Virus record (IMG/VR): IMGVR_UViG_3300028392_000054
Coordinates: 17,730-81,729 of that record
DNA from: a virus
Length of the DNA stretch: 64,000 nt
Strand: one strand, 5' to 3'
The notes below the pieces were generated by a model. It was not told where the DNA came from, made no database searches, and saw only the letters and a program-made list of their open reading frames with translations. Below, in pieces: positions 1,899 through 18,307 of this stretch (the first letter of the stretch is position 1; each line of letters starts with the position of its first letter). A program made the position numbers and the translations under genes.

Positions 1899-2119
1899 AC
1901 TCCTCGCATGTGGTAGTTAAATGACGTTTGCTTAAATGGGATATCTGGATGGTACTTTTTAATTAACTTTAATGCTTCTGACATGTTTAAATTAGGTTTC
2001 CCCTGAAGGGTGGCAAAAACTTCTTGGAAATCTTTGTCTTGCGCTTGAACCCAGATGTTTACTACACACCCTATTGCATCTGACTTAGCTGCCAGTAGCT
2101 TCAGTTCATCTATTAACAT
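1877..2119 (-). CDS. hypothetical protein
   Basis: ORF track; start moved to MLIDELK after GGGAGAGG RBS. Confidence 0.7.
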   Translation of the reverse strand: MLIDELKLLAAKSDAIGCVVNIWVQAQDKDFQEVFATLQGKPNLNMSEALKLIKKYHPDIPFKQTSFNYHMRGVCTCPTA

Positions 2120-2173
2120 AAACCTCTCCCGGTCTCTATATATTATTATCACACAAGAATGTGATGTACGTTG

Positions 2174-2202
2174 ATTATCGCCGATAATTTTTGGTTTGTC
2201 AA
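2174..2202 (-). promoter_or_regulatory. sigma70/SigA-type promoter with overlapping palindrome
   Basis: TTGACA (2202-2197), 17 bp, GATAAT (2179-2174); ATTATCG-N-CGATAAT palindrome 2174-2188. Confidence 0.7.
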
Positions 2203-2208
2203 GACAAT

Positions 2209-2236
2209 AAAAAAGCCCCCATCGCTGGGGGCTTTT
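2209..2236. terminator. intrinsic terminator, potentially bidirectional
   Basis: AAAAGCCCCCA-TCGC-TGGGGGCTTTT hairpin with T-tracts on both strands. Confidence 0.85.
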
Positions 2237-2253
2237 CCTATACCTTGTCGGGG

Positions 2254-2571
2254 TTAGTTATGGTCAGACATTCCGTCTGTAAACTGTGCTGATGTGCGGT
2301 TAGTAGACGCTGGCAGAATACGACCGTTACCCTGTGTAGGACCAATCTGAGGGTCTACATATGAAGGCATCTTTGTAGTAATACCGTATTGCTTAGTGCT
2401 TGTTGCTTTAATTTTTGTGCGGCTAGGCTTTGCCTGCTTGTAAGGGTCGCCTGATGCTGTGTTCTTCTTCTTTACAAGCGTTCCTCTTTCAGGTTTTCCT
2501 GAAGGATTATTAGCAGTTGAAGCTGCGCTAGTTCCCATTGTAGGGAATTTGCCTTGTGGTTGTTTATCCAT
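2254..2571 (-). CDS. hypothetical basic protein
   Basis: 105-aa ORF with GAGG RBS. Confidence 0.65.
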   Translation of the reverse strand: MDKQPQGKFPTMGTSAASTANNPSGKPERGTLVKKKNTASGDPYKQAKPSRTKIKATSTKQYGITTKMPSYVDPQIGPTQGNGRILPASTNRTSAQFTDGMSDHN

Positions 2572-2636
2572 GGTTTTTACCTCTTTGGCCTAAGATGGTT
2601 GATACTTTAACGATACAGGTAATTGGCTAAATATGC

Positions 2637-2918
2637 TTAATTAACTGAATTTACTTTAAATACGATTGCGCTGATACTTTCGCCATTAATCTCTACGGAC
2701 TGAAATCCTGGAATACATACTAGGCTTATTCCGCGTGGCGCGGTATATCCGCTGGCAATGGCAATGGCTTTTACAGCTTGGTTAACTGGTCCCGCGCCTA
2801 CAGCGCGAATCTTACAAGTTCCTTTTTCGTAAATAGCGTGTGCAATAGCTGACGCCACTGCTTGGGGGTTACTAGACGCGCTTACGCGTAATACATTTTC
2901 ATCTTGTGATTCAGACAT
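2637..2918 (-). CDS. spoVS: stage V sporulation protein S (SpoVS) family
   Basis: VLRVSASSNPQAVASAIA...IRAVGAGPVNQAVKAIAIASG...LVCIPGF matches the SpoVS signature. Confidence 0.9.
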   Translation of the reverse strand: MSESQDENVLRVSASSNPQAVASAIAHAIYEKGTCKIRAVGAGPVNQAVKAIAIASGYTAPRGISLVCIPGFQSVEINGESISAIVFKVNSVN

Positions 2919-2981
2919 TTAATTACCTTAAATTGTGTTAGTACTCCCGTACTTCTACTATAAAGGTAAAATAGGCTTAAT

Positions 2982-3419
2982 TTAGGCCCAATCCAAATTT
3001 TCTCTGATGTCTGGCATTACCCCGATTTCACGGTTATCCCAGTTTCCATCAAGTACCATAAGGGCAATAATCGAGTAATTGGCCATATCGATAAAGCTAT
3101 CGCGCAGGCTCTCGTTTTCAGGCTTAGCCCCGCTATCGTACAGGTGATTGATTCTGGCTAACTTATCGTGCATACGTACTCTAAGTCCGTTCAAAGGGCC
3201 GCCAGGGCTTTCGCTGATGTTCTTTGGTCCATAATCTTTGTGCTTTTTAACCAGCAACTGCTCTGCCTCTAAAAACTTAGTAGCCAGCATATTTTCAAAG
3301 TTTTCTTGAAGTACCTGTGCTTTTAGCTCCTCTGTCGTAGGTCCTGATTTACGGATAAATTCTCTTGCTGCTTCTGATAGGCCATTGAAATCGCCTGGGT
3401 CTCCTGGTTTAAACGCCAT
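2982..3419 (-). CDS. nucleotide modification associated domain 1 (DUF1599-like, all-alpha NTP pyrophosphohydrolase-like)
   Basis: KKHKDYG...RMHDKLARI...ESLRDSFIDMANYSII pattern; start placed at MAFKPG after AAGGAG. Confidence 0.75.
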   Translation of the reverse strand: MAFKPGDPGDFNGLSEAAREFIRKSGPTTEELKAQVLQENFENMLATKFLEAEQLLVKKHKDYGPKNISESPGGPLNGLRVRMHDKLARINHLYDSGAKPENESLRDSFIDMANYSIIALMVLDGNWDNREIGVMPDIRENLDWA

Positions 3420-3420
3420 G

Positions 3421-3570
3421 TTATTCTCCTTGTTCATTGTGGCAGGAACATCCGCAGATTTTCTCTGAGGCTGTCCCCATTGATAGTTTTACTACTTTTG
3501 GGCAATTATCATGATGCCCAGTTATACACCAACCAGTACGATCGGTTCCTTGTAAATTTTTATTCCTCAT
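3421..3570 (-). CDS. small Cys/His-rich hypothetical protein
   Basis: hand-translated 49 aa MRNKNLQGTDRTGWCITGHHDNCP...CGCSCHNEQGE; fills the gap. Confidence 0.55.
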   Translation of the reverse strand: MRNKNLQGTDRTGWCITGHHDNCPKVVKLSMGTASEKICGCSCHNEQGE

Positions 3571-3697
3571 CGTCGTGAAAGTGCTCTAAGTCTATACCTT
3601 TTACAACGCCAATTAGTGTCATTATTCCAGCCAATACTAAAGTAACAACTACAGTAATGGATACGAATAATACTACTGCTGCAATAATTTCTACCAT
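3560..3697 (-). CDS. small single-TM membrane protein
   Basis: hand-translated 45 aa MVEIIAAVVLFVSITVVVTLVLAGIMTLIG...DDEE. Confidence 0.55.
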   Translation of the reverse strand: MVEIIAAVVLFVSITVVVTLVLAGIMTLIGVVKGIDLEHFHDDEE

Positions 3698-3700
3698 TTA

Positions 3701-3946
3701 TTAATCCTTTAGTTCTCGTATGAATTGTACAATTATATGTGCATCACAGCTATTTCCGCAAGATGCTGATTTGTGTGGAGCACCGTCTTCTATAAGCTGT
3801 GCTACTCTAGCTCGTTCATCAAACTTACTAGTTTTTAACTCTTTATTTTGTCGCTTTATTATTAACCAGTATGAGGCCAAGATATACGCAAATATACGGG
3901 CAGCAAACCCTGTTCGTTTTTTTGCGTCCTCAAACCCCATAAACAT
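3701..3946 (-). CDS. hypothetical protein
   Basis: 81-aa ORF, TAATG-coupled to upstream gene. Confidence 0.6.
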   Translation of the reverse strand: MFMGFEDAKKRTGFAARIFAYILASYWLIIKRQNKELKTSKFDERARVAQLIEDGAPHKSASCGNSCDAHIIVQFIRELKD

Positions 3947-4536
3947 TAAGGTTTTTCCCTAAAATTAGGGCCTTTAATCTTTTCAAGAATTTCTAATTCA
4001 TAGGCTAGGTTACCTTTACCGGCAGCTAGCATAGCTAGGGCATATGAGTCCGCGGCGTTATCGTCGTTAAACTCTACGCCCCACTTTTTATATACCGCTA
4101 AAAGTACCTGATTTTTTTGTACGCCTGTGCCTTTACCTGTGATGTATTTCTTTAAAGTAGTTGGCGGAATAATGTATGGGTACTTACCCTCAAATTCATC
4201 CAGTTCATTGTAGCAAACCAGTTTTACTATGGCACCTAATTCGCCCAGCATATGGGCCATTGTGGTGCCAAAGGCATAGCCTTCCATGGCTACAATAATT
4301 GACGAAGGCTTATTATAGAAAGTATAGTAGTCCAATATTTCTGTAAGTTTTTCTTGAATCCAAACCAAACGGTCAATGTGTAGCCCTTCTGCTTTAAACA
4401 CATTAGTTTTATAATCCGCTACGTCTTCTGCGTCAAGTACGGTTATCCCAAACCCGGAATAAGATTGGTCTATACCAATTGCAATACTATTTACATCTCG
4501 CCCTAGTCCTGGCCCAAATACCTTATCTTTTGCCAT
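3946..4536 (-). CDS. ruvC: RuvC-like Holliday junction resolvase
   Basis: IGIDQSYSGFG, MEGYAFG, PTTLKKYITGKG, DNAADSYALA RNase H-fold motifs. Confidence 0.85.
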   Translation of the reverse strand: MAKDKVFGPGLGRDVNSIAIGIDQSYSGFGITVLDAEDVADYKTNVFKAEGLHIDRLVWIQEKLTEILDYYTFYNKPSSIIVAMEGYAFGTTMAHMLGELGAIVKLVCYNELDEFEGKYPYIIPPTTLKKYITGKGTGVQKNQVLLAVYKKWGVEFNDDNAADSYALAMLAAGKGNLAYELEILEKIKGPNFREKP

Positions 4537-5039
4537 TATGCGGTAAACTTACGACTTCTGGTTTTAAAGTTATCGCTTGATGTTCTACGGGTCAGCTCAC
4601 GGCTACATACCGCGGTGCTACGTTCGTAGTTATTAACCATGGTCTCTAGCATTTTGCGATACGAGTACTTTACCAAGGCCTCCTGGCGCACTTCACCGAG
4701 TGTAGGGTCGCCATCAACTAAGGCTTTAATAATAGTTACTGTGGTCTTAGCGTTGTTTGTCTGATGACGTAGCATTGCCTCTGACTCAGCATAATCTCTG
4801 TTACGTTCTGCATCTTTTTCATCGATAATGGCACAGGCTAATTGCGTACTTAGAAACTCACTGTAAGCCGATAAATGTGTGTATAAACGCATTAGGTCTT
4901 CATCATCTAACTCTGTGATATCAGCTGGAAGCTCTGGGCGTGGCATAGACGTTTCACGGTCTACAGTCAATCCTTGTTCATCAAGCATATCTAAGATGTA
5001 CTTGCTGGTGTCATTTGTGATTAATGTTGTCTTACTCAT
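4536..5039 (-). CDS. helical hypothetical protein, possibly a UvsY-like recombination mediator
   Basis: all-helical 167 aa within the recombination cluster; family assignment tentative. Confidence 0.45.
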   Translation of the reverse strand: MSKTTLITNDTSKYILDMLDEQGLTVDRETSMPRPELPADITELDDEDLMRLYTHLSAYSEFLSTQLACAIIDEKDAERNRDYAESEAMLRHQTNNAKTTVTIIKALVDGDPTLGEVRQEALVKYSYRKMLETMVNNYERSTAVCSRELTRRTSSDNFKTRSRKFTA

Positions 5040-14420: not shown

Positions 14421-14948
14421 TTACAGTGTTTTTACTATACGGACAAATCGGATTTGCCCGCTTTTGTAATCTGTAAGCGGTTGAATTATCGTGGCATGAG
14501 CTCCACGATGTGCATTAATTATTTTTCCATTTCCAATGTAAATGGCGGCGTGATAGAAGTCTGTGCTGCCATTGTAGGCAAACAAGACAATGTCTCCAAG
14601 CTTTGGCTTTGAGACTCTAGTTCCAATATGCCCTTGGGCATTTGCCGAGTGCGGTAGTTCTATACCGAATCGTTCATAGGCCCAGCGTACTAGACCTGAA
14701 CAGTCCCATCCACGGGGACTGGCACCTGAAAACACATAAGATGTGCGTCCTACGCGAGTTTTCAGATACTTAACTACATTCCTCATTTGAGCAGTATTGC
14801 GGTGTGCTTTAGCTGTCTCAATTAAGGTTAATGGTTTAACTTGGTGTTGCTTTGTTTCTTGTGTAATTTGAGCTACAGCTGTTGCTGTAGAGGCGGAACA
14901 ACCAGCAAGTGTTACAAGTATGCTGGCTATAATTACGTACTTTTTCAT
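14421..14948 (-). CDS. NlpC/P60 (C40) peptidoglycan endopeptidase, predicted lipoprotein
   Basis: YVFSG..P.GWDCSGLV, GDIVLF, HAAIYIGNGKIINA; lipobox LAGC. Confidence 0.92.
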   Translation of the reverse strand: MKKYVIIASILVTLAGCSASTATAVAQITQETKQHQVKPLTLIETAKAHRNTAQMRNVVKYLKTRVGRTSYVFSGASPRGWDCSGLVRWAYERFGIELPHSANAQGHIGTRVSKPKLGDIVLFAYNGSTDFYHAAIYIGNGKIINAHRGAHATIIQPLTDYKSGQIRFVRIVKTL

Positions 14949-15194: not shown

Positions 15195-15491
15195 ATGAAA
15201 CTTTTTGGCAATGTAATGTTGCGTGTACTTGCAACATTTGTCGCCTCAGCACTGGGCGTAATCGGTGCGGGTACAGTCGCCGGCTCTATGAGCGGTATCC
15301 AAATTCCTATTTGGTTTAGCGCTGTAATGGGCGGTGTAATGGCCGTAGCTAAAGTAGTTGAACTGCTTGCTTTGGCTTTCTTAGAAGATGGAAAGCTTAC
15401 CCTAAATGAAATTAATGCTGCTTTCCAGCAAACCGTATCTTTAAAAAATGTCGAAAATGAAAAGGAAAAAACCAATGAAAAAAATGCGTAA
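15195..15491 (+). CDS. holin-like membrane protein
   Basis: two hydrophobic segments, DGKLTLNEINAAF, charged tail; first gene of the plus-strand island. Confidence 0.6.
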   Translation: MKLFGNVMLRVLATFVASALGVIGAGTVAGSMSGIQIPIWFSAVMGGVMAVAKVVELLALAFLEDGKLTLNEINAAFQQTVSLKNVENEKEKTNEKNA

Positions 15492-16941
15492 GTTCTCTAC
15501 TTTATTTGTAGCCGCAACTTCACTATTTCTTATGTTTGGGTTGTCTAGCCCCGCTATGGCTGATAGCACAACTGACTATAACCAAAAAGTTGCTGAGGCA
15601 CAGGCAAAGGTACAAGACCTTCAGAATCAGTTATCCAACGCACAAGCTAACCTTGATAGTTGGACTAACTCGTCTAACTCTCAGGCTGACCTTATTAACT
15701 CTGCCCAGACTGCCGCTACTGAAGCAAAAGATGCTTTAGAGGCTGCTGTGTCCGATTACAACAGTAAAAAGTCTGACTATGATGTGGCTTTTGCTGATGT
15801 TCAGGCTGCTGAAGTAGTAGTCGCTCAGGCAGTGGCCGCAGTAAATGCTGCTGCTGATGTAGTGGACTCTACCTATAATTCTTACGCAGTAACCCAGCAG
15901 AACGCTGATAACGCTCAGGCTGTTATGAATCAAGCACAAAATGATTATGACACCAAGTTAATTACCGAGGGTGGTAGCGTTAAAAATGCCGCTGGTTTGG
16001 TTGTTGATGTTTACACAGGCATTAACCGTTACGGAAACCCTCCACAAAAATCAGACACTGCTTACACCAAATGTAAGACAACTACTGTAGCCAACATTGA
16101 CGCCAACTGGGGTGGCGGTGACATTCTAGGTTGTGGTTCTGATTACATCATGCTTCACTACAAGGGTTACATTACCTACCCAACAACAACTAAAGTTTAC
16201 TTCCAGGCCCCTGCTGATGATGGTTTCTATATGCAAATTGGCGGAACTCAGGTAATCAACGACTGGTCGCTAAAAGGCTGTGGAGCAAACTCTACAGGCA
16301 TGTTCTCCTTTACAGGTGGAAAGTCTTACGCTATTGACGCTTGGTTCTATGAGTGGGGTGGCGGTGCTTGTTCTAGTTTAAACTACAAACCTCTAGGCGG
16401 TAGTTCTTATGCAGTAGCCCCAGCGTCATTCTTCACACAGGGCGCAGTAGCCAACTTGGTTAAAAACCCAGCACTGCTTGCTGTACTAAACGCTAAGACC
16501 GCTCTTTATGTTCAGGCAGTAGCCGCTGAAGAGCAGGCAAATGTGGTTTACAGCAATGCTTGTGATGATTATGACGGCAAACAAGCAGCCTATGGATACG
16601 CTGGAAGTTCGTTAGCAAATAAGCACACTATTTTAGTTCCACTAGAGTACGTCATGAGTAACGCCGAATCTAACTGGCAAAACAGAAGTGATGACAAAGT
16701 AGTCGCTGATGCCAACTTGCGTGACCTAAAAGCCGAGTACAGTAGCACATTTGCTGCTATTGAGTCTGCGGTACAACAGGTAGACGACCTAGAAGCCAAA
16801 GTTGTTCAAGCAAAAGTAGACCTAGCAAACATTCCAAAGCCTACTGCTGCTGATAAGCGTAAACCAAAAAAGAATAACCCAAAGTATTTTGCTGATGGTG
16901 CGTACCTTCCTAGGCAAGCGTTTGTAATCAATTTAAAATAA
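15475..16941 (+). CDS. secreted coiled-coil protein with a central PA14 carbohydrate-binding domain
   Basis: signal peptide ending PAMA-D; heptad Ala/Gln regions flank IDANWGGG...YKGYI...ADDGF.MQIGG..VINDW...WFYEWGGGA. Confidence 0.8.
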   Translation: MKKMRKFSTLFVAATSLFLMFGLSSPAMADSTTDYNQKVAEAQAKVQDLQNQLSNAQANLDSWTNSSNSQADLINSAQTAATEAKDALEAAVSDYNSKKSDYDVAFADVQAAEVVVAQAVAAVNAAADVVDSTYNSYAVTQQNADNAQAVMNQAQNDYDTKLITEGGSVKNAAGLVVDVYTGINRYGNPPQKSDTAYTKCKTTTVANIDANWGGGDILGCGSDYIMLHYKGYITYPTTTKVYFQAPADDGFYMQIGGTQVINDWSLKGCGANSTGMFSFTGGKSYAIDAWFYEWGGGACSSLNYKPLGGSSYAVAPASFFTQGAVANLVKNPALLAVLNAKTALYVQAVAAEEQANVVYSNACDDYDGKQAAYGYAGSSLANKHTILVPLEYVMSNAESNWQNRSDDKVVADANLRDLKAEYSSTFAAIESAVQQVDDLEAKVVQAKVDLANIPKPTAADKRKPKKNNPKYFADGAYLPRQAFVINLK

Positions 16942-17207
16942 TACCCCCAAAGGAATTTAACAACAATAATCCAGTTGCAGATATTCCATTGTTGGGGGCA
17001 GCATTTCAAGGATTAGCTGATGCGTTTAACGCTTTAGGCAACATTGGTGCAGATTTACCTCCTGCTGTGCGAGCAAAAGCACAGAAAGTGGTTATTTCGG
17101 CCATTATTGTTACACAAGTAGCAACACAAGCTGCATCTATGGCTGCTCAAAGCGCAGCAAGTGCAGCATCAAGTTCATCAAGTTCTAGCCGAAGGAAAGA
17201 AAAATGA
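16938..17207 (+). CDS. -1 frame C-terminal extension of the PA14 protein (hydrophobic anchor)
   Basis: frame open from 16914 with no SD-led start; slippery T TTA AAA at 16932-16938 plus downstream hairpin. Confidence 0.65.
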   Translation: MIPPKEFNNNNPVADIPLLGAAFQGLADAFNALGNIGADLPPAVRAKAQKVVISAIIVTQVATQAASMAAQSAASAASSSSSSSRRKEK

Positions 17208-17368
17208 AGTTTTTAAATGACCTTATAGGCCAAATATGGACTCTTTTAGGTATGTTTGTAGCCTGGGTTGTACTAGAAGGCTCTGCTAAGGCGGTAGTTG
17301 GCTGGTGCATCATAGGTTCATTGGTTATATGGATAGCCACGTTCCCCCTGCGAAATAGAGACGAATAA
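17204..17368 (+). CDS. small two-TM membrane protein
   Basis: hand-translated 54 aa MKFLNDLIGQIWTLLGMFVAWVVLEGSAKAVVGWCIIGSLVIWIATFPLRNRDE; ATGA overlap. Confidence 0.75.
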   Translation: MKFLNDLIGQIWTLLGMFVAWVVLEGSAKAVVGWCIIGSLVIWIATFPLRNRDE

Positions 17369-17414
17369 GAGACAATAGAACTGTCCCCTCCAACCCTTCG
17401 AAAGGAACCCCACT

Positions 17415-17939
17415 ATGGGTAACTGGATTTTCCCGGTAAAGAAGGTCAAACTCGGATCACTATTTGGCGCAGTAGACCAGTGGCACAAAGCTCCAGGTCA
17501 TCGTGGAACCGATTATAACGGTTTCCCTGTTGGCGAGCCTTTGCTTGCTGTAAATGATGGAACAATCGTACTTAATAGACCTTTAGCAAAAAGCACCGTT
17601 CTTGGTAACGTTGTTGTACTACAGACAGATAACGGCCACTACTTCGGTTACTGCCACATGAATGAACCATCACCACTTAAGGTTGGAACAGTCGTGAAGT
17701 CAGGCGACGTAGTTGGTAAAGCAGGTAACACAGGCTCAGCGAGTTTTGGTTGTCACCTACACTTCACACTAAGCGGTTCTGCTGAAGGTGTGTTTGGTGG
17801 CAAAGTTTACAACGCTCACGAGTACATTAAAGGCCAAATTGCAAAGCAAAAAGCTGTTAAGCCAGTTGCTAAGCCAGTGGCTGCCCCGGTCCATGCAGAC
17901 CCAAAGGTTTGCCCAACTTGTAAGCAAGAGGTTAAATAA
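17415..17939 (+). CDS. M23 family metallopeptidase (endolysin candidate)
   Basis: HRGTD, YCHM, VKSGDVVGKAGNTG...HLHF; C-terminal CPTC. Confidence 0.92.
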   Translation: MGNWIFPVKKVKLGSLFGAVDQWHKAPGHRGTDYNGFPVGEPLLAVNDGTIVLNRPLAKSTVLGNVVVLQTDNGHYFGYCHMNEPSPLKVGTVVKSGDVVGKAGNTGSASFGCHLHFTLSGSAEGVFGGKVYNAHEYIKGQIAKQKAVKPVAKPVAAPVHADPKVCPTCKQEVK

Positions 17940-18307
17940 TGAAAGCACTTGGTAATTTAATTAAGCGCACTATTGGTGTGGTTATGTTTGCTGCAATCCC
18001 AGGTATGGCTACTGGTGCTGCATCAGGCATTGGTCCACTACTTGGTGCTTTAAATGGTGTTGCTACTGTATTCTCATCAATCATCATTTACTTTGGTGTT
18101 CAACTAGCTTGGGATGCAAGTATTTCAAACGAAGACATTGAAAAAGGTTTCCGTGCTGCTGTTGCAAAACAATCAGCAAATGACCCTGAAGTTAAACAAG
18201 CACTAGAAGAATCAGCTGCTGAAACTCCAGAACTTGCTGACTTTGGTGACCTGACAGAACTAACAGACCATGTAGATGCCCCTGAAGAAGAAGAGCCATT
18301 GGCTTAA
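17939..18307 (+). CDS. holin-like membrane protein with acidic tail
   Basis: two hydrophobic segments, DASISNEDIEKGF; directly follows the endolysin. Confidence 0.6.
   Translation: MKALGNLIKRTIGVVMFAAIPGMATGAASGIGPLLGALNGVATVFSSIIIYFGVQLAWDASISNEDIEKGFRAAVAKQSANDPEVKQALEESAAETPELADFGDLTELTDHVDAPEEEEPLA

Follow-up and report, generated by a model that had tools for sequence, protein, structure and literature searches.

The 64-kb stretch of viral DNA analyzed here (the window; the final 64 kb of the 81.7-kb IMG/VR virus record IMGVR_UViG_3300028392_000054) carries on its plus strand a gene for a putative PA14-domain protein that very probably ends in a programmed −1 ribosomal frameshift (PRF) signal: a slippery heptamer directly abutting the stop codon, followed at a short distance by an RNA hairpin and by an open −1 frame of 89 codons. 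The explanation that we consider best and, taken as a whole, likely is that of a maintained −1 PRF signal by which this single gene would yield a short, released and a long, membrane-anchored form of a lectin-tipped stalk. A sequence-only reading of the window had proposed a programmed −1 shift at the heptamer that adds a hydrophobic, basic-tailed extension; the comparative tests presented below support this proposal.

The zero-frame open reading frame (ORF) of 497 amino acids (15448..16941, plus strand) has a Lys-rich tail (...VINLK) and closes with AAT TTA AAA TAA, whereby the heptamer T_TTA_AAA (16932..16938) is positioned in zero-frame phase according to the X_XXY_YYZ rule and the stop codon TAA (16939..16941) abuts it. 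As the −1 frame is closed by a TAG at 16911..16913 and open from 16914 to the TGA at 17205–17207, a productive −1 shift is possible only between this TAG and the zero-frame stop; read from base 16938, the frame comprises 89 codons (IIPPKEF...RRKEK) plus the TGA (16938..17207). The first and only canonical start codon in the −1 ORF is a TTG at 16989..16991, situated between two of the 3′ arms of the hairpin, and no AGGAG-like run was seen by eye in the 15 nt that precede it. Both strands of the window together contain 89 stop-to-stop frames with 100 codons or more; an in-phase heptamer abutting the stop codon is found in the PA14 frame alone. The coordinates of the sequence-only reading (heptamer, stop, hairpin arms, open −1 frame, TTG, and the ATGA overlap with the next gene) were all found to be correct. 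Two more in-phase heptamers are present in the Lys-rich tail 48–66 nt before the main site (A_AAA_AAG, 16866–16872; C_CCA_AAG, 16878–16884); since the TAG at 16911–16913 closes the −1 frame, a slip at either of them would result only in a truncated protein.

When viral contigs were scanned, the PA14 protein yielded 49 loci of 29–88% identity and the neighboring M23 peptidase 10 more; after removal of duplicates, 38 distinct junctions on IMG/VR contigs from approximately 33 metagenome data sets were available for comparison. Wherever both parts were present, the frame of the extension was −1 with respect to the PA14 ORF, and an in-phase X_XXA_AAA heptamer was found in every one of the 38 junctions (CCCAAAA in 21, TTTAAAA in 16, AAAAAAA in one). 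A maximum-likelihood tree was calculated from the flanks of 37 junctions (600 nt on the 5′ and 240 nt on the 3′ side), leaving out the heptamer and the overly short L007. Its branch lengths reach up to 0.7 changes per site, and it requires three switches of heptamer type, in which all three X bases changed together; no intermediates were present. The stop codon abuts the heptamer in 34 of the 38 sequences and follows one codon later in the four most divergent ones (L039, L040, L042, L044), which have kept the heptamer despite the shifted stop and whose −1 frame is open precisely from the heptamer on. A −1-frame stop immediately precedes the heptamer in 15 of the 38; in these loci, the heptamer is in consequence the sole place for a productive frame change. 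Thus, the expectation that heptamer, stop and hairpin would be conserved in homologous loci was borne out, with the heptamer changing only as a whole; the recurrence of the same arrangement in 38 distinct sequences excludes an assembly error in the window.

The peptide encoded in the −1 frame is conserved from its very first codon (IIPPKEF, followed by xNPVAxIPxLG). Over the 51 nt that separate the TTG from the slip site, column entropy at −1 codon positions 1, 2 and 3 amounted to 0.45, 0.29 and 0.77, respectively, as calculated from the 33 main-group sequences with the five most divergent omitted, and the same pattern continued downstream. In the window, this stretch of the −1 product ahead of the TTG corresponds to the peptide IIPPKEFNNNNPVADIP, the tryptic peptide spanning it being EFNNNNPVADIPLLGAAFQGLADAFNALGNIGADLPPAVR. 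The position of the first ATG, GTG or TTG in the −1 ORF varies from +3 to +141 nt among the 38 sequences. As regards the degree of conservation, identity of the extension among the loci ranges from 64 to 96%, versus 30 to 93% for the last 120 residues of the PA14 protein from the same loci.

The proposed 3′ stimulator is a three-part stem-loop (16944..16998, plus strand; CCCCCAA/UUGGGGG, GGAAU/AUUCC and CAAC/GUUG) that is separated from the heptamer by a spacer of 5 nt (TAATA). Its outer arms are CCCCCAA (16944–16950) and TTGGGGG (16992–16998), and the next helix is formed by GGAAT (16952–16956) and ATTCC (16983–16987). The minimum free energy fold of positions 16925–17020 holds both of these helices and the inner CAAC/GUUG pairing at −21.5 kcal/mol (z-score −2.37; 4 of 200 shuffled sequences folded at least equally well). 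In the alignment of the 38 sequences, the three-helix structure is paired in 85.6% of the alignment cells versus 37–61% when the 3′ partners are slid; one inner pair is changed from AU to GC in 14 sequences, and helix 3 has 15 cells with a double change at one pair. RNAalifold was applied to two subgroups of 14 sequences each (together 28 of the 38): the consensus hairpin of each consists of 15 base pairs and begins 5 nt after the heptamer, the inner helices being different (CAAC/GUUG versus UUUGAGG/UCUCAAA). The four most divergent sequences are devoid of the CCCCC/GGGGG run and still form long hairpins 6 nt after the heptamer (z-scores of −4.67 in L039, −3.81 in L040, and −2.15 and −1.39), with CCCAAC/GUUGGG in two of them and CCCAGC/GCUGGG in a third. 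Hairpins at a distance of 5–6 nt were present in all ten divergent relatives that were folded, five of them with a z-score weaker than −1.5. Overall, we rate the hairpin as conserved in place and shape, with a covariation that is moderate and not strong. Rfam returned only two matches at chance level, both on the opposite strand (E-values of 0.32 and 0.71).

In the extension, a short linker (IIPPKEFNNNNPVAD) and a conserved amphipathic segment (IPLLGAAFQGLADAFNALGNIGAD) are followed by an LPPAVR turn, the hydrophobic helix VVISAIIVTQVATQAASMA, a spacer rich in Ser and the tail RRKEK; the extension gave no match among the Pfam, NCBIfam and PHROG models. A profile built from 37 extensions was compared with 1.84 billion representative proteins and matched 552 of them at E-values of 1e-3 or below and 189 at 1e-10 or below. 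In each of the 150 best matches, the module ends at most 25 residues from the C-terminus (local re-scoring). By length, 131 of these 150 have at least 150 amino acids (up to 1148), 13 fewer than 110, and six lie between. Among the 131 long proteins, 105 begin with Met, 79 of those with an N-terminal hydrophobic segment, and 90 have a Pro-rich stretch before the module; 88 were within the size limit for the Pfam comparison, which detected PA14 in 29, fn3 in nine, SUEL lectin in six and GLEYA in one. All cluster members are metagenomic, the longest contigs measuring 83–132 kb, and none has a curated name. The hallmarks of this family, which is uncurated and was defined in the present analysis, are an NxGADxxPxxR turn with invariant Gly, Asp, Pro and Arg, a hydrophobic helix with a conserved Gln, and a basic tail; in the alignments, the window extension exhibits them at its extreme C-terminus. 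No cellular relatives of the module were detected in two pattern scans of 185,579 species genomes, the patterns being narrow and their silence weak evidence of absence; the ESM Atlas gave no usable match for the module of one in-frame relative (P0004).

Three relatives on contigs of uncultured freshwater phages combine the module with a signal peptide, a coiled-coil-like stalk and a PA14-type domain, as does the window gene. In contrast to it, they are composed of a single ORF with a Pro-rich linker and without heptamer and stop (L054, 505 amino acids, 1970..3487; L061/P0004, 514 amino acids; L046, 908 amino acids, 2080..4806), and a single-ORF form means that every molecule carries the module. 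L054 and L061 also share the gene neighborhood of the window, with a small membrane protein upstream and an M23 peptidase downstream, and in nine of nine further viral loci the module is in frame. Since the module is C-terminal in long in-frame proteins and located in the −1 frame in the clade of the window, it would constitute the C-terminal part of exported, lectin-type proteins that this clade reaches only by a change of frame. The sequence-only reading had held that homologs, if all fused in frame and lacking a slippery site, would mark the window arrangement as a private mutation; distant homologs of exactly this kind turned out to be the ancestral-looking norm, and the signal of the window is shared by its clade and not private. 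In L063 (79% identity to P0004), an in-frame TAG is present in the Pro-rich linker (3276–3278; TAT in L061), so that its module lies behind a same-frame stop; this is known from one contig and could be a nonsense mutation, a sequencing error or a case of readthrough.

According to the mechanism proposed, most ribosomes would read ...AAU UUA AAA and stop at UAA, producing the 497-amino acid exported protein without the C-terminal tail. Some ribosomes would pause over U_UUA_AAA against the stem-loop 5 nt downstream and re-pair both tRNAs one base back, in the P site from UUA to UUU and in the A site from AAA to AAA, and then read 89 codons in the −1 frame to give a protein of 586 amino acids. 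Generally, stop codons beside shifty sites can raise frameshifting, and the abutting stop possibly aids slippage here. The piece added would be the module that almost all relatives of the family carry in frame: an amphipathic segment, a GAD-x-x-P-x-V-R turn, a hydrophobic helix containing a conserved Gln, a spacer of Ser, Ala and Gly, and an Arg/Lys tail. In its long form, the protein would be a lectin-tipped stalk held in the infected cell's cytoplasmic membrane, with RRKEK facing the cytoplasm; the short form would be exported and, once its signal peptide is cleaved, set free. From the sequences we infer that shifting occurs and, one step further, that the long form is inserted into the membrane and that both forms have a biological use.

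If no recoding took place, the −1 ORF would be a separate small membrane-protein gene starting at the TTG at 16989 or its GTG/CTG equivalents, and the heptamer a coincidence of Lys, Leu and Pro codons. A TTG or GTG is indeed present at +48 to +54 in 26 of the 38 sequences, which leaves room for some independent initiation, and gene callers have delimited 13 short stand-alone proteins among the best 150 profile matches. The remaining 12 sequences, however, have no start at this place, and in five loci (L020, L031, L032, L037, L055) the first start follows 93–141 nt downstream, within the most conserved block; the 17 codons ahead of the TTG are conserved as protein with variation at third positions, and the TTG is enclosed in a stable stem and preceded by no Shine-Dalgarno (SD) run discernible by eye. 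In addition, the heptamer retains the identity of its three X bases through three switches, and the module is otherwise the C-terminal part of long proteins (131 of 150). We therefore regard a separate gene as very improbable. Still less credence is given to an inherited frameshift mutation, in which an ancestor lost one base, the gene was split and the extension persisted as an unexpressed, decaying remnant: the single-ORF form is the norm among the relatives, so that the clade of the window does represent the derived state, but the extension surpasses the final 120 residues of the PA14 protein in conservation and has remained open with coding-type variation in all 38 sequences across the branch lengths of the tree. 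A dead remnant would not retain heptamer, stop and hairpin, and the near-clonal clade that this explanation would need is excluded by the tree. Equally remote is transcriptional slippage, the addition or loss of an A by RNA polymerase. An A-run does exist at the site, with seven As in L037; productive polymerase slippage needs roughly 8–9 consecutive As, whereas 37 of the 38 sequences have just four, and neither the conserved two-triplet phase nor a hairpin at ribosomal spacing is required by it.

Several observations weigh against a programmed frameshift that produces an anchored form. The hairpins of L020, L037 and L055 are no better than those of shuffled sequences (z-scores of −0.44, −0.45 and −1.25); RNAalifold on all 38 sequences retains only a C:G stem of 4 base pairs with a covariation term of −0.16, and double changes are restricted to two pairs per subgroup. 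Pro-Pro and Gly codons likewise fix the outer CCCCC/GGGGG helix, which is invariant throughout the main group and for this reason uninformative either way. Contigs of related strains from four freshwater DNA runs have no indel between 16920 and 17146, and as none bridged the heptamer with 31 nt on both sides they are uninformative when taken alone. Finally, the hydrophobic helix of the extension has a Kyte-Doolittle (KD) value of 1.64, compared with the usual membrane-span threshold of 1.6, and contains Gln and Thr.

The 497-residue protein begins with a signal-peptide-like N-terminus, followed by a coiled-coil-like region, the putative PA14 domain (approximately residues 212–321), a second coiled-coil-like region and the Lys-rich tail. 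The signal-peptide-like segment comprises a Lys/Arg-rich n-region, a hydrophobic core (KD peak of 1.68 at residues 19–37) and the sequence AMA followed by DS; following the AXA rule, cleavage is predicted between AMA and D. The match of the window protein to Pfam PA14 (PF07691) is borderline (E-value 8.8e-5; 22.8 bits versus a cut-off of 24), and PDB entry 6qe7, the PA14 region of RsgI3, matches it at an E-value of 4.5e-6. Relatives with the same module exceed the PA14 cut-off: P0011 attains 37 bits, and the best E-value among the 29 matching carriers of the 88 compared is 1.4e-13. The PA14 head is presumed to bind a sugar. As listed, the ORF overlaps the upstream 98-amino acid gene by 44 nt (15448–15491), and in-frame ATGs at codons 4, 10 and 13 would reduce this overlap. 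Other readings of the protein were considered and dropped. A spanin (Rz-like) function was suggested by a sole, weak PHROG 739 match (E-value 0.0013) to residues 17–102, i.e. the signal and coiled-coil region; a surface-exclusion function by TIGR04320 matches of the relatives that were far under the cut-off (E-values of 0.006–0.007; approximately 16 versus 70 bits). A tail assembly chaperone is at variance with the absence of any chaperone family among the PHROG matches and with the position in the plus-strand island.

Concerning the role of the extension, we favor, with some reservation, a type-I membrane anchor: signal peptide, Pro-rich linker (90 of 131 long proteins), hydrophobic helix and RRK tail correspond to the classical layout of such proteins. 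A real frameshift whose module is something other than a passive anchor appears rather unlikely in comparison; the module might then be a sorting or recognition signal that works with the microprotein encoded next to it (e.g. in cleavage and wall attachment or in complex assembly), or an oligomerization or membrane-active element tied to the timing of lysis. Conservation of the module goes far beyond the needs of an anchor, given its invariant Gly, Asp, Pro and Arg and the conserved Gln; the helix is of borderline hydrophobicity, the cassette is surrounded by holin-like genes and an M23 peptidase, and the microprotein gene is found directly downstream in the PRF clade and nearby in the in-frame forms. 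On the other hand, no curated C-terminal sorting model of NCBIfam or Pfam, LPXTG/LAXTG or other, matches the extension, its nearest string being DLPPAV without the T-G. Regarding the "secreted and membrane-anchored forms" of the sequence-only reading, the existence of two forms by frameshifting is thus supported, while the anchor is deduced from a borderline helix, the RRK tail and the family architecture; that the protein is "glycan-binding" and acts "at the infected cell surface" is a presumption.

The PA14 gene is part of an island that spans positions 15195–18307 and represents the sole plus-strand gene block. It encodes, in this order, a 98-amino acid membrane protein, the 497-amino acid PA14 ORF, the −1 ORF, a 54-amino acid protein, an M23 peptidase and a 122-amino acid membrane protein. 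The first of these (15195..15491, defined by ORF and hydropathy) would be holin-like by its shape; it matches PHROG 26427 (E-value 4.5e-21), whose label 'nuclease' is improbable for a membrane protein of 98 residues. The 122-amino acid protein at the other end (17939..18307, hydropathy) has a similar layout, so that the island is flanked by two products with N-terminal hydrophobic segments followed by acidic tails of the D-G-K-L-T-L-N-E-I / S-N-E-D-I-E-K-G-F type. The M23 peptidase (17415..17939; Pfam Peptidase_M23, E-value 2.8e-18) also has PHROG endolysin and metallo-endopeptidase matches and is without a signal-like segment. An NlpC/P60 peptidase with a lipobox (LAGC) is encoded divergently from the island on the minus strand (14421–14948); the phage hence possesses two wall hydrolases, NlpC/P60 and M23, a pair that is kept in L054.

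The 54-amino acid microprotein (17204..17368, plus strand) has two hydrophobic segments, and its start codon, ATG at 17204, overlaps the −1-frame TGA as ATGA. It gave no match in Pfam, NCBIfam and PHROGs. In all PRF-clade loci that extend far enough, its gene comes directly after the anchor module; it also accompanies the in-frame forms, in L054 and L061 as the adjacent gene, in L046 two genes downstream. Over 35 sequences, the positions QxWTLLG...W..LEGSA...G...I...W..T..R are invariant. An SD-like run (GAAGGAAAG, 17191..17199) is located approximately 7 nt before the ATG, within the RRKE codons, and 35 of 37 loci, in-frame forms included, have an AAGGA/AGGAG-type run no more than 18 nt upstream of the microprotein start. 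In consequence, translation of the microprotein need not depend on shifted ribosomes, and the constitutively fused relatives share the same overlap with its gene; the earlier suggestion that the shift gates the downstream gene was not upheld by these data. Translational coupling of the microprotein gene to the upstream frame may nevertheless exist.

The record represents a myovirus whose minus strand, according to the PHROG matches, encodes terminase, portal, major head, sheath and baseplate proteins (sheath and baseplate genes at 29–42 kb); the GC content of the window is 42.6%. The major head protein is 68–70% identical to those of the Streptomyces phages LuckySocke, Alone3 and BRock, the sole basis on which the host is probably an actinobacterium. 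Sequencing runs that contained parts of the locus were freshwater and lake metagenomes. A blastn search of the island against 50,697 phage records revealed no cultured relatives, and tblastn with an in-frame relative matched only a PA14 region, at 20% coverage, in Pelagibacter phage HTVC008M; the gene family is thus without an annotated cultured relative in that collection.

With respect to known recoding systems, the closest parallel among double-stranded DNA phages is the −1 frameshift of the lambda-type tail assembly chaperone G/GT, reportedly described by Xu et al. in 2004 and taken up in PMC10885494. Like the chaperone shift, the proposed PA14 shift involves a −1 slip on an in-phase heptamer near the end of the upstream ORF, a minor, C-terminally extended product in a fixed ratio, and conservation across very divergent phages; unlike the chaperone, which is encoded between tail tube and tape measure, the PA14 gene belongs to a plus-strand envelope/lysis island and has a signal peptide and a membrane-type extension. 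The dnaX signal of Escherichia coli combines an X_XXA_AAZ heptamer with a 3′ stem-loop and an upstream SD-like stimulator. The PA14 junctions resemble it in their X_XXA_AAZ-type heptamer with tRNA-Lys in the A site and in a stem-loop a few nt downstream, and differ in that no conserved upstream SD-like run was seen by eye in the related loci. The dnaX frameshift, which separates tau from gamma, is treated in two sources (10.1101/2025.10.02.679949; PMC5009743). In dnaX, ribosomes that shift terminate early and make the shorter product, whereas the PA14 shift would extend the protein and the stop abuts the heptamer. In copA of E. coli, a frameshift decides between a soluble product, CopA(Z), and a membrane-integral one, as stated in the 2016 review by Atkins and colleagues (PMC5009743). 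Here, one bacterial gene gives rise to a soluble or a membrane product; in contrast to the PA14 gene, whose shifted product would be exported and gain the membrane part, the shifted product of this cytoplasmic/inner-membrane copper pump is short and soluble. The same review gives 70, 25 and 5% for the soluble, transmembrane and small soluble glycoproteins of Ebola virus (GP/sGP; PMC5009743). This viral gene likewise supplies secreted and membrane-anchored forms of a glycan-related surface protein at a set ratio by slippage at an A-run, but it does so by polymerase slippage in an animal RNA virus, so that the analogy is a functional one only. In terms of general layout, stalked Gram-positive surface proteins such as the PrgA/Sec10 surface-exclusion proteins of Enterococcus are comparable (signal peptide, a long coiled-coil stalk topped by a globular head, a Pro-rich segment across the wall, and at the C-terminus a hydrophobic helix and a basic tail), except that the PA14 extension is without the LPXTG motif.

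In print, phage frameshifts mostly concern tail chaperones and proteins of capsid or tail; lysins, polymerases and transposases are listed as well, and in the PRFect data 2397 of the 2476 annotated cases are chaperones (PMC10885494). Our literature search found no phage frameshift reported for a PA14 or an envelope gene; the non-chaperone categories in the PRFect supplement might bear on this novelty. Judged from the sequences, the PA14 junction is a known kind of signal in a new gene context, and its new outcome would be an optional localization module.

The mechanism is canonical and has unusually good comparative support, but the gene concerned encodes an exported, non-virion protein, to which the shift would add, or from which it would withhold, a localization module. 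With its three natural heptamer variants, the clade offers a natural test bed for the combination of heptamer, adjacent stop and hairpin. For metagenomic phage annotation it would follow that short 'orphan' ORFs after such genes are mis-called. Furthermore, the comparison brings to notice an uncurated C-terminal module of 552 representative clusters that is carried by proteins with PA14, fn3 and SUEL-lectin heads. If true, this would be, as far as the literature search shows, the first phage case of recoding that controls the localization of an exported, non-virion protein, and it raises the question what use a phage has for a free lectin beside a tethered one. As a tentative scenario, which we hold to be about as open to doubt as to belief, a freshwater, probably actinobacterial myophage clade may have turned a constitutively anchored lectin stalk into a two-form system, in which the frameshift at the joint of stalk and anchor would fix the ratio of released to tethered protein and the uncurated module would work together with the adjacent microprotein.

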